A stretch of 64,000 nucleotides of DNA. Origin: a virus. The notes under the pieces were generated by a model that was not told the DNA's origin, did no database searches, and was given only the letters and a program-made list of their open reading frames with translations. The stretch lies in IMG/VR virus record IMGVR_UViG_3300028374_000796; one strand, 5' to 3'. Both the position numbers and the translations under genes were made by a program. Shown here piece by piece: positions 7,702-64,000 of this stretch (the first letter of the stretch is position 1; each line of letters starts with the position of its first letter).

Positions 7702-10515
7702 TTATTTTAAAAGTTTACTTCTACGAATGAGAACCTTAGATTCCCCTACGGAAGTTTTTCTACCCAAAGCCAAGTGACAGGCATTCAGAAATGAATGAAC
7801 ATTGTTATAGTTGGAAGACCCACCTACCTTAGATAAGCAAGTATATAGTTCAGAGGGTAAAGGACTGGATCCATAGTCTCTATCTTTCAGGTACATAGCA
7901 GCAACAATGTCTCTATTAGATACCTGATTCATTCTAGCTACCTTGTCCCATCCTCCTTCTTTAGCTTCATAGATAACAGAAAAGACTTTTCTCAAACGAG
8001 TGCTATTCTTAATCTCAGATGAGTATCGAGAAGAGAATGCTTGAAAACCTGAAATGATATTATCATTCACGTTAGGCTTTCCACTGTCTCCTTTGTCCTC
8101 AAACAAAACTTCCCGTGGGTCTAAGCCCAACTCGTTTTTCATATCCTCAGTGATTTCTTTCTTGATATCGTTATGAAGCTCTTTCTTGATATCGTTTCGA
8201 ATTTCTTCGATAGGAGAACCTTCATCTCCTCCTTCTTCGTCTTCCTCCTCCTCATCATCAAAACCAAAGGACTTTTTAGATACGGAAGCTAAACGAGAAT
8301 TCAATTCCTCTTTGAGAATACGAACAGACTCTAGTTCTTGCCCCAGTATTTCTTGGGCAGCCGTTCTAACATGTTTGTCAATGTTCTGACTTTCCAGAAA
8401 CTCTGCCAACATAGGAGAAGCTGTAAGCAACTCAGCTTGCTTCTCAGCGGTTGCTTCTCTCTCTTCAGGGGTGATATCGGAAGAAGAGTTAAGAATGCTT
8501 CTAAGGACCGCTCCTTTGAATGCAGGGTTAGCTACCCAAGAAGCTTCAATGAAAGTAACGGATTCTGGATCAGTTTTATAACCACAGAGTTCTGCAATTA
8601 CACGCTTCTTTCCTTTGGCATCATGAAAATAATTGCCTTTCTCATACTTGACATGTTCGCAAAGTTCTGTTTCGTCCGCAGCTACGTTTCCACATTTCGT
8701 GCAAATGCTGTATTGAATAGAGCATCCCATACTCAAGGTATTGATTTTTCCCGCTTCGATATCTGCAACAAGTTCACCGTGCTTACGGTTAGTTGCTACC
8801 AAAATATCAACATAGACGGTATCGCCCAGGTCTCTGGATACTGCATCAATTACCTTACCTTTTGATAAATCTGGAATCTGAATGTGTTCTACATAGTTTT
8901 CGGCACCAATGAAAGTACGATAGGTACCCATGAGAAGTTCTCGCTCCCACGCATCTCCATTGCAATTATGAACTGCGAATCCATTAGCTAAGTACGAATG
9001 ATCCTCTTCTACCTCGATATTATAGACTTTAGTGTTTTCGGGTCTTGCCTCGACTTCGGTGATCATTTGGACACAATAATCATTAATGAATCGATGAGAA
9101 GGGGCTGTTTGCACTTTCACGTCAAATAAATCCTCATAGATAGTGTCTTTAATTAATTCAGACACCCAACAATATCCAACGAGGACTTCCCAACATTCTA
9201 GGGTAGTACTAAGGTCATTTATAACAGATCCCGTTACAGGGTCTTTGATACGACCAGGACGTTCTCGGTGAGAGCGGCGGGACGAAATTCCTAATGAATT
9301 TAGAATTTGATGAACTTGATTAATCAGGGAAGCAGAGGCCGAGGTACCCTCTAACCTAGGAGCCTTTTCTCCCGTAGGGACGAAAAAGGATCCATCTCCT
9401 TCAAACCAACCTCTGAGAATTTCAAAAAGAATTTCAGAAGACTCTTGTAGAAGGTATGGATGTAGGTATTTTGTTACAGACTCATTACCTTTTACCCATT
9501 TTTGGAAAAAAGATACCATATCTCTATTAGTGCGGGTCGTGGTGACATAAATACCCTTATGGTCACTGGAATCACGAACTACACATTGGACCCCAAATTC
9601 GGACTCCATTAATTCTACGACATTTTGTGCTAAAGTATGACGCTCATTTTCGTGAAATGCCCACAGTACCCCTACTTTGGAATTATCATTATAGCTATCA
9701 AGTTCATAATGACCTTCGGCAAGGAAGTATCCTATGAGACGAGCTTGTCCTTTGGTAATTCCAGTGTTATATACATCTATAGGGATAATAGGCTGCGTAG
9801 CAAAATGCTGTTTAGGAGTTAAATCCTCTGCTTCCAAAAAAGTCCCGTCTTTTTCTTTAAGAAGGGATTTATTAGAAGCTCCCTTTTCATAGTAGCACCA
9901 CTTAGAACAATAATGTCTGCCTAGTAAATGAGATGCGCTTTTATTATTTCTATCAATGTCGGAACCACACTCAACACATTCTTTATTAGCCTCAAAGACA
10001 AAGAAAGGATGCTCGGGAGTGGTACTAAGACGCTCATTGGATCCCTGGATTTTAATGTCCAGAATATTTCCCTCATAATCATTTTCAAAAGTCTGTGTAA
10101 CTTTTCTAATTCTCCCCTTATGAGTTCTTACCTCATCTCCAACTCGAACATCTTCGATATTTTTGACAGTACCATCACCCATAGTAATATGAGTACCGCT
10201 TTCAAAACAGTTCACAAATTTTGAAGTTTCTGGTGTGATATAATAATCGTTGTGGAGTCTCTTAATGGACTGACCACCGTCCCCCTGTATCTTTTCCCCT
10301 ATCTTTACGTTAGGAACTTCATCAACGTCTACAGACGCAATGATAGTACAGTGAGTAAGGAGGTATTTGCTGGGATCAGCATACTCTCCTAAATTAATAG
10401 AAGATCCTGTTTTGTTAAAAGGATCAGTGGAAGAAGCCTGGCGGATTTGATTCCACTTATCTTTTCCCACATTAGATTCTTCAACGATAGCTTTTGCAAA
10501 TTTTAAGAAGGCCAT
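7702..10515 (-). CDS. Prohead (head maturation) protease, intein-containing, with an acidic C-terminal extension
   Basis: The spliced product reads SKFVN-CNGDAWERELL; candidate catalytic His (YVEH) and Ser (TLSMGC); located in the head module. Confidence 0.75.
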   Translation of the reverse strand: MAFLKFAKAIVEESNVGKDKWNQIRQASSTDPFNKTGSSINLGEYADPSKYLLTHCTIIASVDVDEVPNVKIGEKIQGDGGQSIKRLHNDYYITPETSKFVNCFESGTHITMGDGTVKNIEDVRVGDEVRTHKGRIRKVTQTFENDYEGNILDIKIQGSNERLSTTPEHPFFVFEANKECVECGSDIDRNNKSASHLLGRHYCSKWCYYEKGASNKSLLKEKDGTFLEAEDLTPKQHFATQPIIPIDVYNTGITKGQARLIGYFLAEGHYELDSYNDNSKVGVLWAFHENERHTLAQNVVELMESEFGVQCVVRDSSDHKGIYVTTTRTNRDMVSFFQKWVKGNESVTKYLHPYLLQESSEILFEILRGWFEGDGSFFVPTGEKAPRLEGTSASASLINQVHQILNSLGISSRRSHRERPGRIKDPVTGSVINDLSTTLECWEVLVGYCWVSELIKDTIYEDLFDVKVQTAPSHRFINDYCVQMITEVEARPENTKVYNIEVEEDHSYLANGFAVHNCNGDAWERELLMGTYRTFIGAENYVEHIQIPDLSKGKVIDAVSRDLGDTVYVDILVATNRKHGELVADIEAGKINTLSMGCSIQYSICTKCGNVAADETELCEHVKYEKGNYFHDAKGKKRVIAELCGYKTDPESVTFIEASWVANPAFKGAVLRSILNSSSDITPEEREATAEKQAELLTASPMLAEFLESQNIDKHVRTAAQEILGQELESVRILKEELNSRLASVSKKSFGFDDEEEEDEEGGDEGSPIEEIRNDIKKELHNDIKKEITEDMKNELGLDPREVLFEDKGDSGKPNVNDNIISGFQAFSSRYSSEIKNSTRLRKVFSVIYEAKEGGWDKVARMNQVSNRDIVAAMYLKDRDYGSSPLPSELYTCLSKVGGSSNYNNVHSFLNACHLALGRKTSVGESKVLIRRSKLLK
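8965..10209 (-). mobile_element. Intein (415 aa) with LAGLIDADG endonuclease in the prohead protease
   Basis: Starts CFESGT, has block B TPEHPF, endonuclease motifs LIGYFLAEG and RGWFEGDG, and ends HSYLANGFAVHN followed by +1 Cys. Confidence 0.95.
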
Positions 10516-15828: not shown

Positions 15829-16104
15829 CTATTTTTTATCTAAGAAAGGGCGATCTTTCAGTTCTTTTTTTAGCTTCAAGAAACTTTTACACACTTTCCG
15901 CATTAACTGCCATTGATCCAAAGATCCTTCCGCAAGACCTACCCAGCTACCTTCTGATTTTTCAAAAAGATCCTTTAGTAATAGGTAGTCTTCCTCCTCC
16001 ATTCTTTTATAATGATCTCCCATTTTTCGGATATAAGTATGGATGGTCACATACCAAAAGCGTTCTTTCAGGGGGAGTTTATCTTTTTCTTCTTCTTTGC
16101 TCAT
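15829..16104 (-). CDS. Hypothetical protein
   Basis: 91-aa ORF whose start overlaps the TerL stop codon. Confidence 0.65.
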   Translation of the reverse strand: MSKEEEKDKLPLKERFWYVTIHTYIRKMGDHYKRMEEEDYLLLKDLFEKSEGSWVGLAEGSLDQWQLMRKVCKSFLKLKKELKDRPFLDKK

Positions 16105-19100
16105 TACCTACCTCCATTATTACGACCACCACCGGATCCTCTGGGGTTTCGCTTCGACGTATAGTTTCTGCTTCTTCGTTTACGACGATGATATTCAGTC
16201 GTAGTTCTAGGCTGTCTTCCTCCAATTCCACGGGAACCTACCACCTGAGGATTATGAGAATGATTCTTCTTATTCATAAGACGATCCATAGCAATCCAGA
16301 CTGCCCGTGTAAGAGCATCAGAAAAGTCATCATATTTCCCTCGAACTTGTGGAGCCTCTACCATGATCATTCGTTTTCCTCGGGAAGTGGACTCAAGCTC
16401 TAATAGCTCCTGAATGTGCGGAGAGTGACCTTGTCTCTCTAAACCGTCATCATCAGTGAGAACATAGTCATAGAGTTCGATTTTTTCGCGGTACATAAGG
16501 TTCTTAAATCCTTGATATATTTCAGAAGTTGTACTCCGGGTAAAATTGTTCATTTTGATCCTTGACAAATTACGCCTTTGAAGAATCTGATCAAAACCAA
16601 TACCTTCAAATGAGTCATAAGCTCCTTCTACGACATAAAACCGTTTACAGGCTTCTTCGATCCAGTTAGCAATCTGTTCGTAATCCAGAGTTTCAACAGA
16701 TCCCAAGTCCCTAGCATAAGGAACCATAGGCTTTTCCAAATGAGGATTCAGTAAATGCCACTCTGTTTTAGCCTGCCATTGCTCATGATAAGCCAACTGA
16801 ATCACGTCTTCCTTTAATCGTGTAAGTACCAAAGCTGTGCGGTCCCCTTTCGGGGCCAGGTCAAATCCAAGAAAATGCCGGTCCCTAGTTTTCCCTTTCT
16901 TAGCCGGTCTTAAATCGGGATTAATGCAGGCTAGGAGATCATCATCTCTTTCAATCCAGGACTTGACCTTATCTGTAAATTCAGCCCCGAACTCTGTGGT
17001 GAATGCAATGGGATTTTTTTCGTACTCTTTCTCAAAATAATTATGAGGAATAGTTGGATTCACTTCCCAGGTAGGAGCCTGAATCATTAAAAGACCCTTT
17101 GAACCGGGTCCTCCAGAGAGAGCCATCTCATATTGCTCATAGAACAGCCCCTGCTTGGCGTAAGGGGAAGAGATGAGGATCATCCTACCCTCTGAGTCTC
17201 CAATAGGTATGGAAGCGTCGTCAGGGTCTTTGGGAGAGAACTGCGCCAGAGAAGGGTTGAGAGCCTGATAAACTTCGGAAGCGGAAGCTTGACCACTCGT
17301 ATTAAAGAAAGCGACCTCGTCCATGATGGCCACAATATTAGCAGAACCACGAATACCTTTCGCTACAGAAGAGTAAAACGTAATTCTAACAGAGGGCGCT
17401 CCCTCATTATCTTGATCCTGAGGGGTATGAAATAGAGCTTGCGTTTGTGTCTCATTTCCCATAAACTGGGAGAAGAAATTACAATTATTGAAGTGACGGC
17501 GCACCTCTTTATATAACAAAGCAGCCTGATCCTTCGAGGTAGCAATTGAACAAATCTGAATAGGGGCGCCCTCAGGAGTACCGTAATAGGCTTGTGGGTT
17601 ATATTTCTTTAGCAGCTTATACATTTCATAAGCTGCAATCATAGCCGAGATCGAGCTATTATGATTGGTCATTCCATTAGCTACATATTGGTGACCCTCA
17701 GGAACACTAATATCCCCAACTTCAGTTCTAGTTTCTTTCACAGACACAACTGGATCAAAGAAATAGTCTTTTTCTAGGAATTCTTCACCTTTCGATATTA
17801 ACGTGTTAGATGCCCCATTCTCTTTTGCAGACTCAAGGGTATTTACAAGTCTTCTATACGTCATCTGGTCGGAACTTGAGGGCTTACAAACATTTCCCAA
17901 TTCTTTTCTTACATGACTCCTGCGCCATCCTTTTTCTGAGGATCCGTGGCATAAAGGATTGTTCTTAGGAATAGAATCTAAAAGGGACCTTGACCATTCT
18001 TTTTGGTGTGGAATTGAATTCAAACGAGATTTAGATTTCATACCACAAGTTTCTAGTCGGGTCTTAACCTGACTATTTTTTCTTTCCGTAAGAAATCCAA
18101 TTTGTTCACTGAAAATCCTAGCAGATCGAATCCCAAAAACACCTAAATCATAATAGTCAGTGCCCTCTATTTCTCTAGTTCTAACTCTGGATACGATACC
18201 GAAATTTAGAAGAAGTAACTGAACCTGTTTCGCCATTTTCGGAGATGCAGTACAAAAACTAATCCTTCCGTTATCTGCGCAGCCATCGGTTTCAAACAAT
18301 CCCTTAAGAAAAGCTGAGACAACCTGTTTGGGGGATCTCCGAATCGACCAAGGTATTTCCTTATCATTGGATTTAGCATCGTAATTCCAACCCAAGTCAT
18401 GTAGAAACTCTCGGAATCCTGTACTATGATAGCGTAGCGTTCCTGTTCCGGATTCCAAACCTTCGAGATCTAATTTCTGAGTCCAAAGACTTTCCCCCAT
18501 TAGTTCCTTGAAAAGATCTTCACAAATTGAAATCATTTCTGGATAGGGACCTACCGTAACTCCAATAGAGGATTTACTAGTCCAAGATCCGTCGCCCACC
18601 AATATTCCCATAAGGGTTGCAAAGTCTTCTGTTAGATATTCTGGGGTTGAAAATTCTTTATGACCCTTTTCATTGTTAAACTCAGAAAGGTCTAAATATT
18701 CTGTAGGCCAGAGATCAGTATTTCTATGAATACAGAGATGGTCCCCTTCCTTGATTTGATCCCCGTACTTCCAATCTATAGTCCCATCGGATCCTAATAC
18801 CTTGACCCTATGTTCAGCCGTGCATTCTATGTCATAGCCGCAGTGTGATTCGATCTTATAGGTATCTTCAAACCCGTTATAGTAAAAAGCGTCGGCTTCT
18901 GCTCTCTTAAGTTTCCCTTCCTGTGCGACCTCAAACCCTTTAAGGTCATACCATGTGTCTGAGGTCATTTTCTGGTCAGGAGCAAGCTCACGAAGCGTCT
19001 GGAGACCTTGAGAGGTAAGAAGAAACGTACCGTCTAGCGATCCACATTTCCCACTACGTCTGCCAATCGGAAGGATCAATTCTCTTCTATCGTGGTCCTG

Positions 19101-19436
19101 CTCTTTGATATTACAGCGGCCCTGACTATATAGATATTCTAGATAGCCAACCTCAGTGAATTCCAGCATTCCTGCGCCATCCTTCTGGGCATACCTCCAG
19201 GATTTAGGGACTTTGACATAGGGATCCGTGTCATCAAGTTCCAAATTATAGAACATTTTGAGGATAAATCTCTGAACAGGGAACAGGGCTTGTCCACAAA
19301 TCTCTTTAGCGAAACGAAGTCCGAAAGGAGATTCGATGAATTCGATGATATTCATTACATCATCGGTCTTCTTCTTACCTCCAGATCCGTCCTCCTGTTC
19401 CCTACCTATTTTTCTAGCTAAATCAGATAATGACAC
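16104..19436 (-). CDS. terL: Terminase large subunit, intein-containing
   Basis: Walker A GRRSGK|S is split by the intein; Walker B IMDE; coupling motif LISSP; nuclease motifs LGFDLA and YDDFSDA. Confidence 0.93.
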   Translation of the reverse strand: MSLSDLARKIGREQEDGSGGKKKTDDVMNIIEFIESPFGLRFAKEICGQALFPVQRFILKMFYNLELDDTDPYVKVPKSWRYAQKDGAGMLEFTEVGYLEYLYSQGRCNIKEQDHDRRELILPIGRRSGKCGSLDGTFLLTSQGLQTLRELAPDQKMTSDTWYDLKGFEVAQEGKLKRAEADAFYYNGFEDTYKIESHCGYDIECTAEHRVKVLGSDGTIDWKYGDQIKEGDHLCIHRNTDLWPTEYLDLSEFNNEKGHKEFSTPEYLTEDFATLMGILVGDGSWTSKSSIGVTVGPYPEMISICEDLFKELMGESLWTQKLDLEGLESGTGTLRYHSTGFREFLHDLGWNYDAKSNDKEIPWSIRRSPKQVVSAFLKGLFETDGCADNGRISFCTASPKMAKQVQLLLLNFGIVSRVRTREIEGTDYYDLGVFGIRSARIFSEQIGFLTERKNSQVKTRLETCGMKSKSRLNSIPHQKEWSRSLLDSIPKNNPLCHGSSEKGWRRSHVRKELGNVCKPSSSDQMTYRRLVNTLESAKENGASNTLISKGEEFLEKDYFFDPVVSVKETRTEVGDISVPEGHQYVANGMTNHNSSISAMIAAYEMYKLLKKYNPQAYYGTPEGAPIQICSIATSKDQAALLYKEVRRHFNNCNFFSQFMGNETQTQALFHTPQDQDNEGAPSVRITFYSSVAKGIRGSANIVAIMDEVAFFNTSGQASASEVYQALNPSLAQFSPKDPDDASIPIGDSEGRMILISSPYAKQGLFYEQYEMALSGGPGSKGLLMIQAPTWEVNPTIPHNYFEKEYEKNPIAFTTEFGAEFTDKVKSWIERDDDLLACINPDLRPAKKGKTRDRHFLGFDLAPKGDRTALVLTRLKEDVIQLAYHEQWQAKTEWHLLNPHLEKPMVPYARDLGSVETLDYEQIANWIEEACKRFYVVEGAYDSFEGIGFDQILQRRNLSRIKMNNFTRSTTSEIYQGFKNLMYREKIELYDYVLTDDDGLERQGHSPHIQELLELESTSRGKRMIMVEAPQVRGKYDDFSDALTRAVWIAMDRLMNKKNHSHNPQVVGSRGIGGRQPRTTTEYHRRKRRSRNYTSKRNPRGSGGGRNNGGR
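17658..19046 (-). mobile_element. Intein (463 aa) with LAGLIDADG endonuclease in the TerL Walker A motif
   Basis: Starts CGSLDG, has block B TAEHRV, motifs GILVGDG and GLFETDG, and ends YVANGMTNHN followed by +1 Ser. Confidence 0.95.
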
Positions 19437-41755: not shown

Positions 41756-44194
41756 TCACTCGTCCTGATCTTCATCGTCTCCCATATCATGTTCTTCTAC
41801 CATGATATCGTCATCGCTTACCTTACCCGCCTTCTTAAAACCTTTGGAGAAGGAAGCAACTTGCTTAACGATCTCCTGGAAATCATCGGGATTTTCCAAT
41901 AGATATTCACGAAGGTTTTCCTTACCTTGTTGCTTGACTTCTTCGCCTTGCGCGTTGGTGAACGTGTACCAAGCTCCACCTCTCTGTAGGACATTTCGAG
42001 AGTCTGCGATGTCAATAACAGAACGGACATTATCAATACCCTCTCCATAGCGGATTACGAACTCCCCACTATGTCCCTGATGCCGACTAACTTTGTTCTT
42101 GACATTCTTGGCACGAACAATATTGGAAATAGGCTGCTTGTCACTTTTACCTGTCATCTCATTTTCAACCTGAGAATATTCAGTTCTGCAACGTTTGACC
42201 ATCAGTCTCAGAGAAGCATAGTATTTGAGAGCACGCCCTCCACTAGTTTCTTCGTCAGGACCCGTATCATACATGGAAGTCTTGATTCTTGACCTCAACT
42301 GATTGATATAAATTAGAGCAGTTCCGCTTTCCTCAATCCCTTTTACAATCTTGGGAAGAAAGGAACTCTGGAGACGGGCAATGTGACCAAGCTGACCTGT
42401 AGAAGAAACGTCGTTATCTTCAATGTCTTTTTGGGGCTTCATAGCAGCCACAGAGTCAACGATAATTAAATCAACCCCACTCTCTGCCATCGCCTTGATG
42501 ATCTCGGCACCTTCCTCCCAGTGAAGAGGCTGGACCAATAGAAAGTTTTCACTTTGGATATCCAAACCCAAATCCGCAGCATAAGTAGGAGCGAAAGCGT
42601 GCTCATAATCTAGAAAACAAACAGACCCTCCTTCTTTCTGACATTGAATGGCAGTGTGAATGGCAACCGTGGTATTATGACTAATGAATCCATTGGACCA
42701 GAACGAGTGAGTTTCTGGAAGGCTCACGTCGAAAGTGGGAACATCTTCTTCGGTATCAATAGAGACAACAGGGGAAAAGAAATAGTCCTTATCCAAAAGA
42801 TCCTGCAACTGGCGCGCTACTCTCATCCCTTCTGGATTAGTTCGACCCTCTAAAACTTCCAATATAGAAGCTAGACGAGTTCGGGAAGGATTAGCTCTTC
42901 CTGACATATAGTCACCAAAGAGACGATTATCGCTTCTATTGGTTCCCTCAGTATGAGTATAAAGAGTTTTCAGAAGACCACTAATATTAGGTACGCCGTC
43001 AACATTGGAATTGAAAGGTCGATCACTAAAATTAGCAATAGACTCTTTTCGTTGTTCCGAAATGAATCCAATCTCTTCTGCATATCGAGAGGCATATTCT
43101 CCTGCCCAGGTCAATCTCCAATAGTCATTATCCGGGTAGTTTTTCACCTTCTTCTCACTGAGGACACTAAGGTATCCCATAGAAAGGAGAATCAATTGAA
43201 CTTGATCCAAAAGCTCTTTGCTAGCAGAAGTTACTTCGATAGCTCTCTTAGTAGAGTCAATATGGCATTCTAAGTCCACATAAGCTCTCAGAAACGCTTC
43301 CTGAACTTTGCGAGTACCTTGACGTACGCAAAAGGGAACTTCCTTTTCAGAAGCTACCACGTAGTCCAGACCATATTTGGTTGCTACCTTATCTCTAAGA
43401 GATGTAGAATTGATATGATGGTCAATTGTATCGGAATCAGATTTGGAATAGGAAAGGATCGGGGTAGAGGACCCAAATAGATTCTTAGTAATCTGATAAT
43501 AATCCGAAATAATGTCTTCGTCGCTATTGGAAAAACCAATGCGATCTTCAGAAGTAAGGGAACCGTCCGCTACCAAGTATCCCAACCAGCGAGATTCTTC
43601 TTCTGAGATTTCACATTTGGAAGGAAAATTTCCTTTGGACATTAGGACCAAAGCATCTCCTACTCTAATATCTTCTGCATTCTTCCAGACGATATTTCCT
43701 TCAGGGGACATAACTCTGAGAGGATGATTTCCAGTTACTCCAACTTTCATTCCCAGTTGGTTCTGGATGTCAAAGACTTTCTGTTCACCATTCCAGGTCA
43801 AATGAGAAGTGGATTCCATTTCGCCATTTTCATTTAGAAGACGAACTTCGTGTTCTTCGATCTTCTCAGTAGTTTCGATAGGCTTTCCGCATTTCTCGAA
43901 AAGTTCTTCGATAGTAAGCATTCCATATTCGGAATGAACGTAAGTGCCCGCACGGACGCATTTTCCCGAGCCTTCTGGGCCGAAGATCTCAGTGATCCTC
44001 CCCCTTGGGATTCCAGGACACCTCTTCTCACCGCCTTCGGTTCGATATCCACCAATAAGGTAATCTAACACAATAGAACCCGTAGGAATGCAAGGAATTG
44101 GCTCTGTGCCATCCCCCATTTCTACAACGGATTTTTTCATGTCAACAATTTTACTTTTCTTTAGGGATTTGAGAGCTTTTTGAAGATTGCTCAT
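41756..44194 (-). CDS. recA: RecA recombinase, intein-containing
   Basis: IPTGSIVLD, GRITEIFGPEGSGK|TT, IIVDSVAA, INQLRS, GGRALKYYAS, KNKV. Confidence 0.95.
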   Translation of the reverse strand: MSNLQKALKSLKKSKIVDMKKSVVEMGDGTEPIPCIPTGSIVLDYLIGGYRTEGGEKRCPGIPRGRITEIFGPEGSGKCVRAGTYVHSEYGMLTIEELFEKCGKPIETTEKIEEHEVRLLNENGEMESTSHLTWNGEQKVFDIQNQLGMKVGVTGNHPLRVMSPEGNIVWKNAEDIRVGDALVLMSKGNFPSKCEISEEESRWLGYLVADGSLTSEDRIGFSNSDEDIISDYYQITKNLFGSSTPILSYSKSDSDTIDHHINSTSLRDKVATKYGLDYVVASEKEVPFCVRQGTRKVQEAFLRAYVDLECHIDSTKRAIEVTSASKELLDQVQLILLSMGYLSVLSEKKVKNYPDNDYWRLTWAGEYASRYAEEIGFISEQRKESIANFSDRPFNSNVDGVPNISGLLKTLYTHTEGTNRSDNRLFGDYMSGRANPSRTRLASILEVLEGRTNPEGMRVARQLQDLLDKDYFFSPVVSIDTEEDVPTFDVSLPETHSFWSNGFISHNTTVAIHTAIQCQKEGGSVCFLDYEHAFAPTYAADLGLDIQSENFLLVQPLHWEEGAEIIKAMAESGVDLIIVDSVAAMKPQKDIEDNDVSSTGQLGHIARLQSSFLPKIVKGIEESGTALIYINQLRSRIKTSMYDTGPDEETSGGRALKYYASLRLMVKRCRTEYSQVENEMTGKSDKQPISNIVRAKNVKNKVSRHQGHSGEFVIRYGEGIDNVRSVIDIADSRNVLQRGGAWYTFTNAQGEEVKQQGKENLREYLLENPDDFQEIVKQVASFSKGFKKAGKVSDDDIMVEEHDMGDDEDQDE
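42674..43960 (-). mobile_element. Intein (429 aa) with LAGLIDADG endonuclease in the RecA P-loop
   Basis: Starts CVRAGT, has block B TGNHPL, motifs LGYLVADG and RAYVDLEC, and ends HSFWSNGFISHN followed by +1 Thr. Confidence 0.95.
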
Positions 44195-58423: not shown

Positions 58424-61400
58424 TTAGCCACAAGAGCCATTTCCACAATCTAGGCATTTGTCGCAGCCTCCCTCGTAAATCAGATTCGGAGAGCCACATG
58501 CCTCACACTCTTTTCCAACCACTACCGTACCGTCCTCGATGTGAGACGTAAGAAACTTACGGGCGGCAGTGAGGGTAGAGGCGATATAATCGCCTTCGAT
58601 GTCTGTGAGTGCATGTACGACGGACACAATACCAATATTATGCCTGAGAGCCATACCAATCATCTTACAGAGACGAACATGATGGAGATCGTCTTTGATC
58701 TTTTCCAACTGTTCATATACCAGATCAAAGTCAACCCCTTTTCCAATAAGGAGCTTGGTTACACTTTTAACAGCTCTATTTAGAGAAACATATTCTCCAT
58801 CTGCCATGTCATTTGTATGAACCCAAAAAGCAATTGGAAACTGATCATCATCGGGGAGATAGGAAAGATGAAGATAATATTTATTACCTTCTGCTTTTAC
58901 TTTTACCGTATCGCCGTTACTGAATTTGGGAGGCAATTTAGTATCCCTTACGATAACACCTTCGTCGGTAATCTCAGCGTCTTCGTCCAGTAAGCCCCTC
59001 TCTTTAAGTAATTCAGAGAGTGAACTAGCTGTAGATTTAGAGGTTGGTTCGGATCCCGAAACTGCCAGTACGTTTTCCATGATCCCATCTCTGTAGGTAG
59101 TGAAGCCTACCAACTTGGCTTTCCATGCCTGAACATAGAGATCTTTGAACTCATCAAAGGGATAGTTCTTTGGTAAGTTACAGGTTTTAGATACTGACTG
59201 ATCACAGCTTTCTTGGATAAGAGCTTGGACTTGAACATGCTCATTTACTTTAAGGTCTTGCGCTGTTGACAAATATTCTGCGTCCTGATCGATATCATTG
59301 GGAAAATGTTTTAGGACCCAACTATATCCATAGTCCTGTACTTTCTCTACAAAGCACAGTCCTCGGTTATGAGGTTCATAGTGCCACATCCTTCCGTTAT
59401 ACTCCCCTCTCCATGCGGTAGAATCTCCAACTTCCACTTCTTCAAGGATGTCTTTTACATTGTCCCTTGTCAGACCGTGGGGCCACTTATCTGAAATTAC
59501 AGTTCGATCATATCCGAAAGAGAAGACCGGCTCAATTCCATTTGATACCATATCACAAATAACTGATGAGTTCCCTAGAGGCGGATTCGTCAGTCTTTTA
59601 GCATTCCTGAGACCATATTGACGAACCAATTCTTTGGTGCTGTCCGCTGCGGTACAGTAGTCCTTGAAATAAGGAGTATCCAGATATTTTTCCTCATACA
59701 TTGGGAAAGGACCACGTTCTCTAGCCAAAAGAGCAGATGCTCTAAGGGTTTCATCATCCTTAGCCTGTTGAATTCTACGGACAAATTCATTACCTCCATC
59801 CCCACCATAGCGGATCCCCATCATAAACATGGCAGATCCCAGACCATTCACTCCCATTCCATATTGACGGATGTTTTTAAGTGCCCAATCATATGCAGGA
59901 AGAGGAACCGCGCCGATATCATTCACATTATCTAACATTCGTGCAAAGGTATTAATAGCGTCTCTATAGCCTTCATAATCAAAAGACCTATCATCCCTTA
60001 CAAATCTAGTGAGATTGACTGAGCCTAGCAGACAGACCGTTGTAAACCCGATGAGGTGGTTATCAAAATCTCCCATATAAGGTTCTAGATAGGGGGCTGG
60101 TTTGTATCCTTTATCCAAGTAGGAAGTTCCTGGAATTTCGCCACACCCTCTAGATACAATACCGTGCGTATTCCAGTCATCAGACTTAGGTTCATATAAA
60201 TCGTAAACTGTATCCTTTCCATCTAGTTCAATGGATTCTATTTTCACCTTCCACTTTGTTCCAGTTAACTGCCTACCGCATACAATACTCTCTAACTGAT
60301 CATGTTTATCCGGGTGTGAAATACCTCCGGTAAACCTATAAACAGCCTCAATACAATCATTAGTTAAATGACCTTCATACACATCGTGATTCCGAACAAC
60401 CTCTCTACCATAGATCGACCGAAGATCGCCCGCCTTAGCCACCTCATACAATTTATAATCAGCACCAGAGATCAAGCAAACTTCTCTAAAAAAGTTGTGC
60501 AATTTTTGACTAGTGCTTTTAAAACGGATGGACGGATATCGACTTGAACGATTAACATTACCATCAGAACTAATTAATCCATCTAGAACCCCAGAGAGAA
60601 ACTCTGAGTTACTATTCAACCACCATTCAGGGGGACATTTCTCATGAGAATATTGAAGGTTATCAAGACCTACTTTTTCAAAAAATTCAGAAGCTGCCTT
60701 AGACTGCACCCTCAAGTGCATCGCATTTCCTTCTGCGCTGTGGTCTTCACAAAAAGTCATTCCTGCCTTTTCCAAAGCCCCCGTAAGATAAGAATTATCT
60801 TCGACTGAATTGGCAGACAAAATAAACCTTTTAAGTTCCGACCGACAACCATCCCCCAACCAATATCCCGCTAGAAATCCATCGTTCCTAGTAAGATCTA
60901 TTCTGTTAGTAGTTTTAAACCGATAAGGCTGCTTTCTAACATAATCCCCGACTTTCAAATCCTTTAGGCGGACGGTATTATCCCATTTTTTACGGCAATT
61001 TGAATTCTGCATAACATGGAAAATATGTCCTTCAGTTACACGAAGAGAAGTACCGTCTGAAAACTTCACTAAATACACGGGACAGTCCTCATGTACTTCT
61101 ATTTCCTGAACAGGATCAAAACCTAAAGATGTTTGGATTTTATCTCCAACCTTAACATCTTCAACAGGGACAAGACCTTTCTCCGTAGCAACTAAAGTAC
61201 CTTTAGCAACGCAGGGATTACTTGCAGTAACAGGACCTAGATACACCAGGGGATTTTGACGATTCATATTGTCAAAGAAAAGAACGCCGGGTTCTGCTCG
61301 GTTATAAGTAGACTCCATAATAAGATCGTAGAGTTCTACTGCTTTTACCTGCTTATAGGTCTTTCCTTCAAAATGAAGGTCATACATGGTATCGTTTTCT

Positions 61401-62251
61401 ACAGCTTCCATGAAGGCATCATCTACCAGAACGCTGATATTGAATTTCGTGAGCTTTCCACTTTCTTGCTTGGCTCTTACGAATTCTTCAATGTCGGGAT
61501 GCCAGATAGGAAGGGCGGCTAACATAGCGCCTTTCCGGGGCATAACTTTTTCGATTCGATCCTGCGTATCATCGTCCAGATGATTAGTTAGACGATCCTC
61601 GTAGCCATCATTATCTCCTTTAACGATCATAGCAGACATTTTGTCCCATAGTTCCATATAAGAAACTACTCCGGGATGACGAATGCCAACCCCTTTGATC
61701 AGAGTTCCACGGGGACGAATGAATCCAAAATTGATTCCGTATCCGCCTTCGCTTTTTAGAGTGTCTGCTGCTTCCAGTAGAGACAAGAAAATATTAGTGA
61801 GAGAATCCGGTGTTTGATCCGTTTCCATATCACAAACGATCTTAGCATCTGTATTAGGAACGCTCTTTGCGTAAGAAATCTTAGCGTCAGAAACAGGAGA
61901 ATTTATGAAGCAATTAAGTAGAGTTGCTTTATCAAAGATTGTTCCTGCATTCGCAGTAATACGTCCCCCTGTGGTGCATTTAAGGCCGTCTGCGACCCAT
62001 CGTTCCCCTTCCAGATCTACATAAAAGTCTTCACCACCTTTGTCAGATTCCTTAGCAGGTTTAAAATCCACCAACGTTTTCAAAAATCGATCGTACCATA
62101 CTTCTACTTCTTTTTCTGTAGCTTCATAATGGGATCTTTCCACTTCTGCCAGGGCCCTAGCAACTCTTTGAAAAGTTTCAAGGGGTGTTTCGTCTCCGAA
62201 TCTATATTTAGTCTCCCAGTTTTCGCGTGCTAAAAGGGTTTTAAAAATCAT
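58424..62251 (-). CDS. nrdJ: Class II (B12-dependent) ribonucleotide reductase with an atypical intein
   Basis: GGRITANAG, LNCF, GGYGINF, KFNISV, AEPGVLF, NP|CGE, CLLGSVNL, GIEP, QSVSKTCN, GFTTYRDG, C-terminal Zn ribbon. Confidence 0.92.
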   Translation of the reverse strand: MIFKTLLARENWETKYRFGDETPLETFQRVARALAEVERSHYEATEKEVEVWYDRFLKTLVDFKPAKESDKGGEDFYVDLEGERWVADGLKCTTGGRITANAGTIFDKATLLNCFINSPVSDAKISYAKSVPNTDAKIVCDMETDQTPDSLTNIFLSLLEAADTLKSEGGYGINFGFIRPRGTLIKGVGIRHPGVVSYMELWDKMSAMIVKGDNDGYEDRLTNHLDDDTQDRIEKVMPRKGAMLAALPIWHPDIEEFVRAKQESGKLTKFNISVLVDDAFMEAVENDTMYDLHFEGKTYKQVKAVELYDLIMESTYNRAEPGVLFFDNMNRQNPLVYLGPVTASNPCVAKGTLVATEKGLVPVEDVKVGDKIQTSLGFDPVQEIEVHEDCPVYLVKFSDGTSLRVTEGHIFHVMQNSNCRKKWDNTVRLKDLKVGDYVRKQPYRFKTTNRIDLTRNDGFLAGYWLGDGCRSELKRFILSANSVEDNSYLTGALEKAGMTFCEDHSAEGNAMHLRVQSKAASEFFEKVGLDNLQYSHEKCPPEWWLNSNSEFLSGVLDGLISSDGNVNRSSRYPSIRFKSTSQKLHNFFREVCLISGADYKLYEVAKAGDLRSIYGREVVRNHDVYEGHLTNDCIEAVYRFTGGISHPDKHDQLESIVCGRQLTGTKWKVKIESIELDGKDTVYDLYEPKSDDWNTHGIVSRGCGEIPGTSYLDKGYKPAPYLEPYMGDFDNHLIGFTTVCLLGSVNLTRFVRDDRSFDYEGYRDAINTFARMLDNVNDIGAVPLPAYDWALKNIRQYGMGVNGLGSAMFMMGIRYGGDGGNEFVRRIQQAKDDETLRASALLARERGPFPMYEEKYLDTPYFKDYCTAADSTKELVRQYGLRNAKRLTNPPLGNSSVICDMVSNGIEPVFSFGYDRTVISDKWPHGLTRDNVKDILEEVEVGDSTAWRGEYNGRMWHYEPHNRGLCFVEKVQDYGYSWVLKHFPNDIDQDAEYLSTAQDLKVNEHVQVQALIQESCDQSVSKTCNLPKNYPFDEFKDLYVQAWKAKLVGFTTYRDGIMENVLAVSGSEPTSKSTASSLSELLKERGLLDEDAEITDEGVIVRDTKLPPKFSNGDTVKVKAEGNKYYLHLSYLPDDDQFPIAFWVHTNDMADGEYVSLNRAVKSVTKLLIGKGVDFDLVYEQLEKIKDDLHHVRLCKMIGMALRHNIGIVSVVHALTDIEGDYIASTLTAARKFLTSHIEDGTVVVGKECEACGSPNLIYEGGCDKCLDCGNGSCG
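60146..61213 (-). mobile_element. Intein (356 aa) with LAGLIDADG endonuclease and a non-canonical C-terminus (...VSRG|C)
   Basis: Starts CVAKGT after SNP, has block B TEGH, motifs GYWLGDG and GLISSDG; blocks F/G read VYDLYEPKSDDWNTHGIVSRG, then CGEI. Confidence 0.9.
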
Positions 62252-62310: not shown

Positions 62311-63282
62311 TCAGTTGTGAATAATGAAACTCTGGAGTAAAAGGCGTCCGGGTTTCCCCATTTTGGACTTCGCTTCTACGTCGCAGATAGTTCGATATGC
62401 CTTAAGCAATTCTTCGATGTTGCGGGTACTAATCTGGTCAGATACTTTATTGTCAAAAATCCATTTGGATAAACCAAGTTCTGCTGCTATCTGACTGTCA
62501 CCTGTTCCTGCATCTCTTAGGGATCTAGCTTTCAGGAGGTTCTCTATTCTATCAAAGAATCCTCGAATTATTACTAACTCGGATCGGACCCACTGTGTCT
62601 CAGGGGTCTTTTCAAAATGACGGGCCATAAATTGGAGGGCAACATTCTTATTTCCCAATCCCCAATGCCGTACAATCTCAAAAGGAGATAAAGCACTTTG
62701 ACTATAAAGAACCGCCTGAATATCCTCAGGCTCGATGATTTTCCTCTCGCCACAATAGATAGCTACTTTATCTAATTCATTAGAAAGAGAAGGGAGAGAA
62801 TTACCGACATTCATTACAATGGCTTCTGCAAAATCCTTTTTAAGTCGTAACCCTCTTTGGTTTGCTTCTTCCACTAACCATTCTCCCAGATTCCAGTCTT
62901 TAATCGTGTCACATTTAAGGGTATCAACGACTTTAAGAGACTTAAACCATTTCGCATCTCTCCCCCGATCGGTAGAGACAAAAACTACCACTTTATCCGT
63001 AGAAGGATTTTTGCAGTAGGCTTTTAGAAGTTTCTGGTTTTTTATTTTATTAGCATCCCTAACTACTATTAGTTTTTTCATAGAAAGAAAAGAGGCAGTT
63101 GCCTCTAAAAGGGCAGGTTCTAGCTCCTCATCGTCATCGCCGCCAACATAGGATTCATAATGGTGATTCGGAAGAAGAATTTTGGCTCTAGCTAATTCTC
63201 TATCCTTAAAAAAAGATTCATTACCTAGAAATGAAACGACTTTAGGTTCGGAACTCCAATCTATTTTTTTAATTGTCATCAT
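62311..63282 (-). CDS. holA: DNA polymerase III delta-like clamp-loader subunit
   Basis: FLGNESF, SFLSMKKLIVV, NELDKVAIY...IEPEDI; adjacent to a delta-prime-like gene. Confidence 0.78.
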   Translation of the reverse strand: MMTIKKIDWSSEPKVVSFLGNESFFKDRELARAKILLPNHHYESYVGGDDDEELEPALLEATASFLSMKKLIVVRDANKIKNQKLLKAYCKNPSTDKVVVFVSTDRGRDAKWFKSLKVVDTLKCDTIKDWNLGEWLVEEANQRGLRLKKDFAEAIVMNVGNSLPSLSNELDKVAIYCGERKIIEPEDIQAVLYSQSALSPFEIVRHWGLGNKNVALQFMARHFEKTPETQWVRSELVIIRGFFDRIENLLKARSLRDAGTGDSQIAAELGLSKWIFDNKVSDQISTRNIEELLKAYRTICDVEAKSKMGKPGRLLLQSFIIHN

Positions 63283-64000
63283 TAAGCCCCTCTCTTCCTG
63301 TAAGGATCGCATTCTGTAATTGATGAGAAAAAGCCAACCCTCGTCGGTCTCTTAGATCATGCAAATTTTTGAAAGCATCAAACACTCGATAGGATTTATC
63401 TTCCCAGTCCTCTTTAATAAAGAGAACGTCTTCTAGACGATCTTGATTCAGGATTTTTTCTATATTTTCTTCCAACAAAAGAACATCGTGAACGATCCCA
63501 AATAAGAAATCAAAAAATAAGGGTTGGTCATCTTCTGGAATTTTCCCTATAAATTTTAGAACTATGTGGACGGGAGTCCTTCTTAGATTTTTGAAAAGAC
63601 TGAAAGCTCGATTCCTTAGTTCAAACCCCGTAAGGGATTCCTCTTTGGAGGGCTGTACTAACCTCAGGGCGCGATCTAAAGAACCCGAGCATAATCGAGA
63701 GGCAAGTATCTTTTCGTCTTCATCGAGTTCTTCTGGAGCGTCCAGAAGGTCATAGATGATGTCGTCACTCAATGGAGCGAAATGAGTGGTCACTGTTCGG
63801 GATCTAAGAGTAGGGAAAACCAGTTCCAAATTGGTTACCGTGAAGATAAAAAGTGTATCCTCGAAACCATCCTCAATCGTTTTTAGGAGAGCATCACTTT
63901 GTTTATGCGAAGGAAAGTCCTGAATATCACCAAAAATGATAACCCGCTTTCGGGCTTCTGCTCTGGGCTTATTAGCCTCCTCCAATGATTCACGAATTAC
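63269..64000 (-). CDS. holB: DNA polymerase III delta-prime-like subunit; 5'-partial, frame open to the window edge
   Basis: VIRESLEEANKP...KRVIIF...SDALLKTIED...FIF...FPTLRSR (SRC-like motif). Confidence 0.78.
   Translation of the reverse strand, partial: VIRESLEEANKPRAEARKRVIIFGDIQDFPSHKQSDALLKTIEDGFEDTLFIFTVTNLELVFPTLRSRTVTTHFAPLSDDIIYDLLDAPEELDEDEKILASRLCSGSLDRALRLVQPSKEESLTGFELRNRAFSLFKNLRRTPVHIVLKFIGKIPEDDQPLFFDFLFGIVHDVLLLEENIEKILNQDRLEDVLFIKEDWEDKSYRVFDAFKNLHDLRDRRGLAFSHQLQNAILTGREGLNDDN

Follow-up and report, generated by a model that had tools for sequence, protein, structure and literature searches.

How does an intein that ends in glycine leave its host protein? The question is raised by a gene for a class II-like (NrdJ-like) ribonucleotide reductase (RNR) precursor in the IMG/VR virus record IMGVR_UViG_3300028374_000796, a 64,000-nucleotide stretch of DNA hereafter called the window. 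The gene (58424..62251; all window coordinates given here are on the minus strand) contains one intein (60146..61213) that ends in Ser-Arg-Gly, directly in front of the catalytic cysteine of the enzyme. In reviews, the terminal residues given for inteins are limited to Asn, Gln, Asp and Glu, Asn is called a requirement, and the third step of splicing is presented as a cyclisation (PMC4031507, PMC3207474). Our analysis suggests that the element is probably a functional, mobile LAGLIDADG intein of a monophyletic and widespread RNR clade. All of the Asn-cyclisation apparatus has been replaced in this clade (F:13 His by Asp, G:6 His by Arg or Gln, G:7 Asn by Gly), and we propose that Asp345 of the intein carries out the third step.

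The reading frame is open over 1275 residues. In Pfam, it matches the RNR barrel (PF02867, E 6e-90), interrupted by a region that matches LAGLIDADG_3, Hint_2 and Intein_splicing. The best NCBIfam match is TIGR02504 NrdJ_Z (adenosylcobalamin RNR), with 392.6 bits for a cut-off of 399.95; the closest intein-free orthologue, P0264 (N-extein 76% identical), scores 397.2 bits and also lies under this cut-off. The N-extein (61214..62251, residues 1-346) ends with ...GPVTASNP, a sequence contiguous with CGEIPG in P0264. The C-extein (58424..60145, residues 703-1275 and the stop codon) starts with CGEIPG and ends with a Cys-rich, zinc-ribbon-like tail. The 356-residue intein (protein residues 347-702) is placed between SNP and the thiyl-radical Cys and reads SNP/CVAKGTLV ... 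VYDLYEPKSDDWNTHGIVSRG/CGEI, where slashes mark the junctions; the codons at the C-terminal junction are TCT AGA GGG TGT. Its boundaries are exact, since P0264 reads GPVTASNPCGEIPGSS without a break, and ..ASNPCGEIPG.. is likewise continuous in P0267, P0268 and others. Removal of residues 347-702 restores the N-x-C-x-E radical loop (S-N-P / C-G-E). This insertion at the thiyl-radical Cys corresponds to the most frequent RNR intein site (PMC2677866). A preliminary description of the window had drawn the insert from the Cys after SNP, through TEGH and LAGLIDADG, to GIVSRG before CGEI, in an intact 1275-residue frame, and had identified the +1 Cys as the thiyl-radical Cys of the NxCxE loop; the open reading frame, the codons and the intein-free orthologues bear out each of these points.

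The intein is built from a HINT splicing domain into which a LAGLIDADG homing endonuclease is inserted. Its N-terminal nucleophile, Cys1 (61211..61213), opens block A (CVAKGTLV), and block B reads T-E-G-H (61025..61036), with Thr60 at B:7 and His63 at B:10. Asp338 (60200..60202), at position F:4 in the motif VYDL, is needed in the N-terminal steps, and Cys+1 (60143..60145) is the thiyl-radical Cys of the RNR N-P-C-G-E loop. Cys1, Cys+1, His B:10 and Asp F:4 occur in every one of 120 inteins extracted from the family, and Thr B:7 in 115 of them. The endonuclease domain (60239..60892, intein residues ~108-325; PF14528, E 3e-9) has two motifs, ..YWLGDGC.. and ..VLDGLISSDGNV.., in which D121/G122 and D217/G218 are conserved. 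Its fold matches I-DmoI and PI-SceI, and two motifs with conserved acidic residues are what is expected of a LAGLIDADG homing endonuclease, the activity predicted here. The AlphaFold2 model, which comprises the intein and 10 flanking residues at either end, is confident (pLDDT 87.8, pTM 0.87) and adopts the HINT fold of inteins. Its best Foldseek matches in the PDB are the TliVMA (7qsu), PI-SceI (1ef0, 1vde) and PI-PfuI (1dq3, an RNR intein) inteins, with E values of 1e-16 to 1e-13. These share the two-domain fold, with a TM-score of about 0.6, but are only 12-15% identical in sequence to the window intein. No structure of the Gly-ending clade has been solved, the best sequence match being PI-PkoII (E 7e-11).

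The element has Cys1, Cys+1, a Thr-x-x-His block B, an F:4 Asp and an in-frame insertion at a conserved site, as expected of a class 1 intein. What it does not have is a cyclisable residue at G:7 (Asn, rarely Gln, Asp or Glu), a position occupied by Gly356 (codon GGG). The assisting histidines at F:13 and G:6, which are common without being obligatory, are both replaced as well, by Asp345 and Arg355. In the terminal Ser-Arg-Gly (G:5, G:6 and G:7; 60146..60154, TCT AGA GGG), the last residue is Gly in 118 of the 120 family inteins and Asp in the other two. Before it stands Arg in 107 cases and Gln in 8, preceded in all 120 by Ser, Asn or Gln.

The canonical block-F His (ET-H-SF) aligns with Asp345 (60179..60181) of the window intein (KS-D-DW), the first D of SDDW. 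Asp345 lies seven residues after the F:4 Asp, the spacing of F:13 in well-studied inteins, and is followed two residues later by a Trp in place of the usual Phe. In an alignment of cluster representatives (61 Gly-, 9 Asp- and 42 Asn- or Gln-ending), F:13 is Asp in 61/61 Gly-ending sequences and in 0/51 of the others. This covariation between F:13 Asp and G:7 Gly is new in this analysis. Thus the block-F His that the preliminary description reported as replaced was not merely lost; it gave way to an invariant Asp. In addition, G:5 is polar (Gln, Ser or Asn) in the Gly clade and Val, Thr or Ile in its canonical relatives, while B:13 is His in 43/61 of the Gly-ending representatives. The targets of the F:13 His in canonical inteins are the terminal Asn and the tetrahedral intermediate (PMC4031507).

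These observations suggest a pathway. The conservation of Cys1, Thr B:7, His B:10, Asp F:4 and Cys+1 leads us to infer that the first two steps are canonical: an N-to-S acyl shift at Cys1 would be followed by transthioesterification to Cys+1. Scission of the Gly356-Cys+1 bond, the third step, cannot proceed by side-chain cyclisation because Gly has no terminal side chain. Judging from the sequences, the third step of Gly-ending inteins must therefore differ from the textbook cyclisation. The carboxylate borne at the terminus by the Asp-ending inteins would be relocated to F:13, so that Asp345, in place of the Asn-activating His, would cut the Gly356-Cys+1 amide. As a nucleophile, it could form a transient mixed anhydride with the Gly carbonyl; alternatively, it could activate water as a general base. 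The Arg or Gln at G:6 and the polar G:5 may assist, and Gly would make room for access. A final S-to-N shift would yield active NrdJ with the N-P-C-G-E loop intact. In our estimate, the chances are about even that the Gly-ending RNR inteins constitute a fourth mechanistic class, in which the C-terminal junction would be resolved without a cyclisable residue by means of the F:13 carboxylate, be it through an inter-residue anhydride, a protease-like hydrolysis or a Gly-Cys N-to-S shift, possibly even with a cyclic intein as product.

The terminus is not peculiar to the window. About 180 RNR inteins ending in Gly were found in total at the NP/CGE site, in phages, Chloroflexota, Patescibacteria, other bacteria and a DPANN archaeon. 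About 118 RNRs with a homologous intein at this site came from a word-indexed search that used the intein region as query, and 167 of 220 full-length, alignable homologous inteins at the site end in Gly. The closest homologues (L001-L003; 74, 69 and 66% identical) and the 147-residue mini-intein of L004 (L004:3048-3488) share [S/N/Q][R/Q]G/C, as does the whole Gly clade. Scanning one genome per GTDB species gave 25 family loci, all from metagenome-assembled genomes (MAGs), and 25/25 end in G/C. Their carriers belong to Chloroflexota (Anaerolineae, Ardenticatenaceae, Caldilineaceae), Patescibacteria, Blastocatellia, Nitrospinota and a DPANN archaeon, and include MAGs labelled Gammaproteobacteria and Pseudomonadales. 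Ten family members are mini-inteins of 133-147 residues that have lost the endonuclease and kept ..RG/C. Two syntenic Chloroflexota loci (ftsA-ftsZ-nrdR-nrdJ-DUF218-A2M) carry, at the same position, a 362-residue intein (L006:3910-4995) and a 144-residue mini-intein (L007:3907-4338); this pair is a natural endonuclease deletion in which ..VSRG/C was kept.

An exhaustive profile search over 1.84 billion cluster representatives gave 1195 matches at E <= 1e-30. Along the score gradient of the best 150 of these, Gly-enders come at the top, followed by Asp-enders (..TLTW.TNG.VS[FLY]D/C) and then by canonical Asn-enders (..ETHSFIANG.VVHN/C) with a few Gln-enders, all at the NP/CGE site. The Gln-enders at this site include P0172 and P0253 (..TGQ/C) and P0193, P0201 and P0259 (..HQ/C); related inteins with Asn, Gln, Asp and Gly termini therefore occur there. 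At the nucleotide level, GenBank phages gave no match to the window RNR gene. Among their proteins, the search met only remotely related inteins of 25-28% identity, from mycobacteriophage, Pectobacterium and Lactococcus phages. A scan of IMG/VR with the phage-clade alignment A4 found no relative, and full-text searching of the literature turned up no account of inteins that end in Gly.

The last eight residues were left out of the trees (FastTree, 129 rows; IQ-TREE, 59 rows), which are unrooted. All Gly-enders fall on one side of a single branch, with a FastTree support of 82 and an IQ-TREE SH-aLRT of 95. Their sister group is an Asp-ending clade of six members (joint branch support 100), and the opposite side of the tree holds canonical Asn-enders, Gln-enders and a second Asp group. 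The trees thus show that the Gly-enders arose once, beside the Asp-ending inteins. They constitute a monophyletic variant of class-1-like inteins that is so far undescribed. The window intein itself belongs to a 10-member subclade (support 100), whose NrdJ hosts resemble the window phage enzyme; one of its close relatives is carried by a contig of 318 kb. The NP/C site of sister phage NrdJ genes is either empty or held by other intein lineages: the intein of P0265 ends with ..VSN/C, and that of P0289 starts with Ser1 and ends with ..GN/C. Another lineage is found in P0300, a phage-like NrdJ of 1008 residues on a 191-kb contig. It apparently ends with ..NGVSVAR/CGEV, where Arg takes the place of a terminal Asn, and may represent a second non-canonical terminus or a decayed copy.

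Selection has kept the intein. Between the window and L001-L003, the intein shows a non-synonymous divergence (dN) of 0.23-0.36 and the extein one of 0.26-0.37. The synonymous divergence (dS) is saturated, and dN and codon usage were used in place of the dN/dS ratio. With similar dN values and saturated dS, the intein is therefore constrained as much as the enzyme. In 33 DNA copies, the terminal Gly (G:7) is encoded by all four Gly codons (10, 9, 7 and 7 times), Arg G:6 by all six Arg codons, Ser G:5 by all six Ser codons and Asp F:13 by both Asp codons. All synonymous codons being in use, it is the amino acids, not the nucleotides, that are kept under selection.

The bacterial carriers tell more about the need for a mature enzyme. 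Their Gly-intein nrdJ lies 3' of nrdR, in nrdR-nrdJ operons, often beside ftsA-ftsZ. In the five Chloroflexota genomes to which the loci led, it is the sole PF02867 match (5/5). NrdD is absent from all five genomes searched, while control genomes gave the expected matches, and no R2 gene was found in two of the five, one of which is a single 10.4-Mb contig. Since the sole gene for an RNR catalytic subunit carries the intein, the precursor would have to mature, unless these organisms live without RNR. The other three Chloroflexota genomes have an R2-like (PF00268) gene (G001:C3:3664331-3664975, G004:C34:121917-122651 and G005:C11:92765-93364) and no class I alpha subunit; these genes may be R2-like ligand-binding oxidases or orphan R2 genes.

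Several points weigh against a splicing-competent intein that uses Asp345. Splicing of the Gly-ending inteins is deduced from sequence, and the role of Asp345 from covariation and homology of position. Chemically, it is demanding for a single carboxylate to hydrolyse an amide or form an anhydride. The phage could tolerate a dead RNR by relying on that of its host, and the bacterial carrier genomes are MAGs whose completeness is not reported. The preliminary description had left a choice between non-canonical splicing or branch resolution and a dead RNR that had not yet decayed. On the latter account the intein would be unable to splice and the phage RNR would be inactive, with stop codons yet to accumulate. 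The loss of all three canonical step-3 residues would fit, as would a phage living on the host enzyme, but the terminus is common to a whole clade with synonymous codon turnover. Moreover, mini-inteins keep the RG end, intein dN equals extein dN with dS saturated, five bacterial genomes yielded no RNR catalytic-subunit gene other than the intein-bearing one, and the reading frame is identical in independent samples. A dead RNR is thus very unlikely, and the first alternative is favoured. The earlier text had also named homologues ending in HN, together with relaxed selection, as what would speak against an unusual mechanism; the homologues end in Gly and the intein evolves no faster than its extein. 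By these comparisons, the window phage NrdJ is most likely functional.

If the intein does leave the precursor, the chemistry could still differ from that proposed for Asp345. Gly-Cys is among the sequences most prone to the N-to-S shift in peptide chemistry. A double N-to-S acyl shift, the chief competing route, could exploit this: Cys+1 would attack the Gly356 carbonyl, and its freed alpha-amine would then attack the N-extein thioester on Cys1. Water would then cleave the intein-Gly thioester left on Cys+1, or Cys1 would take it over, in which case the intein would be released as a head-to-tail circle. In favour of this route, both Gly at -1 and Cys at +1 are invariant, the pair Asp F:13 and Arg G:6 could fill the roles of base and oxyanion partner just as well, and ligation by a freed alpha-amine has a precedent in bacterial intein-like (BIL) domains (PMC4031507, its references 36 and 37). 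Cys+1 is, however, the catalytic Cys of RNR, so its invariance says nothing about mechanism, and the family has no Ser+1 or Thr+1 members that would discriminate. Two thioesters would also need coordination, and the perfect covariation of F:13 Asp is explained less specifically, which makes this route unlikely. It is very improbable that a trans-acting protease or cofactor of the host or phage, instead of the intein, cuts the C-terminal junction. Such a factor would account for the missing cyclisable residue and has no direct support. The same terminus spans phages, several bacterial phyla and a DPANN archaeon, which makes a shared helper implausible for a mobile element, and no conserved neighbour gene travels with the intein. 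We give next to no weight to a junction shifted, in the phage subclade, to Asn348/Thr349 (..DDWN/THGIVSRGCGE..), which would offer a canonical Asn/Thr site and leave 8 extra residues before the catalytic Cys. Asn348-Thr349 is indeed conserved in the closest relatives of the window intein, but most of the clade has Ile there (WITEG), and NP is joined straight to CGE in the intein-free orthologues. In addition, the residues that follow form the last HINT beta-strand in the model, and it is implausible that the finger loop at the radical Cys would hold eight more residues. Scission assisted by Asp345 is therefore the reading that we retain.

Among known inteins, the nearest are the Asp-ending RNR inteins, which share the NP/CGE site, Cys1 and Cys+1, the combination of HINT and LAGLIDADG domains and the lack of both the F:13 and penultimate histidines. 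Their terminal Asp can cyclise to an anhydride and their F:13 is Leu or Phe, whereas in the Gly-enders a terminal side chain is lacking and F:13 is invariably Asp. We take their prototype to be Chy RIR1 of Carboxydothermus hydrogenoformans. Amitai, Dassa and Pietrokovski reportedly found in 2004 that C-terminal cleavage of Chy RIR1 persists even when Ala replaces the terminal Asp, so that scission takes place with no cyclisation. Canonical class 1 inteins at the RNR site (His-Asn-ending P0205, P0209 and P0216, and P0265 with Ser-Asn) are homologous to the window intein over their full length (profile scores of 120-195 bits). They share its insertion site and blocks A, B and F:4. At F:13, G:6 and G:7, the His-Asn-enders have His, His and Asn where the window intein has Asp, Arg and Gly. 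Gln-ending inteins (CIV RNR, Pab and Mma Pol II) splice naturally without a terminal Asn (PMC4031507). Their Gln is able to cyclise to a glutarimide, whereas the Gly of the window intein is not. Class 2, class 3 and BIL HINT domains reach spliced products by altered reaction orders, including ligation via a freed alpha-amine (PMC4031507). Class 2 inteins have Ala1 and no Ser1 or Cys1, class 3 inteins have Cys at F:4, a WCT triplet and no Cys1, and BIL domains have no +1 nucleophile and reside in variable, non-essential hosts; all keep the terminal Asn. In contrast, the window intein has Cys1 (as do 120/120 members), Asp at F:4 (as in all members) and Cys+1, interrupts an RNR active site and has no Asn.

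A large natural clade without Asn and without both helper His, present in the sole RNR of some bacteria, implies that there is a second natural way to break the bond between intein and C-extein. C-terminal cleavage without cyclisation, an old question at which the Chy RIR1 mutant hints, is now directly testable on mini-inteins of 133-147 residues, with F:13 Asp, G:6 Arg and G:7 Gly as targets. If the proposal is true, succinimide-free C-terminal cleavage could yield new tools for protein ligation and tag removal. In addition, intein finders that demand a terminal Asn will miss or mis-trim Gly-ending elements.

The Ser-Arg-Gly terminus is authentic. Contigs of three further lake-metagenome runs (X3, X4 and X5; Logan) show zero differences over 60143-60154, in agreement with the earlier view that the codon changes are not a sequencing error. 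The window also provides its own controls, with three further LAGLIDADG inteins that end canonically. That of the large terminase TerL (16104..19436) ends with ..HQYVANGMTNHN/S (..NHN/S). The intein of a RecA/UvsX-like recombinase (41756..44194), inserted at the P-loop GSGK/C, ends with ..HSFWSNGFISHN/T (..SHN/T). The third, in a 937-residue protein with a prohead-protease-like region (7702..10515), ends with ..HSYLANGFAVHN/C (..VHN/C). Since these three end in HN, the SRG terminus is peculiar to the RNR intein and does not come from assembly or from the genetic code; identity between runs and these controls rule out a sequencing or assembly error. An engineered XbaI site (TCTAGA over the Ser-Arg codons) was also rejected, since the window contains 21 copies of this motif and other codons are found in the relatives. 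With three HN inteins and one SRG intein in 64 kb, canonical and non-canonical termini thus coexist in one genome, and the phage is intein-rich.

The window, which carries genes for a portal, a large terminase, a clamp loader, a ligase and a RecA/UvsX-like protein, is part of a large lake-water phage. Clamp-loader-like genes (DNA_pol3_delta_C) at 62311..63312 and 63269..64000 lie directly upstream of nrdJ, and the same order from clamp loader to nrdJ is found in the related phage contigs L001, L002 and L004.

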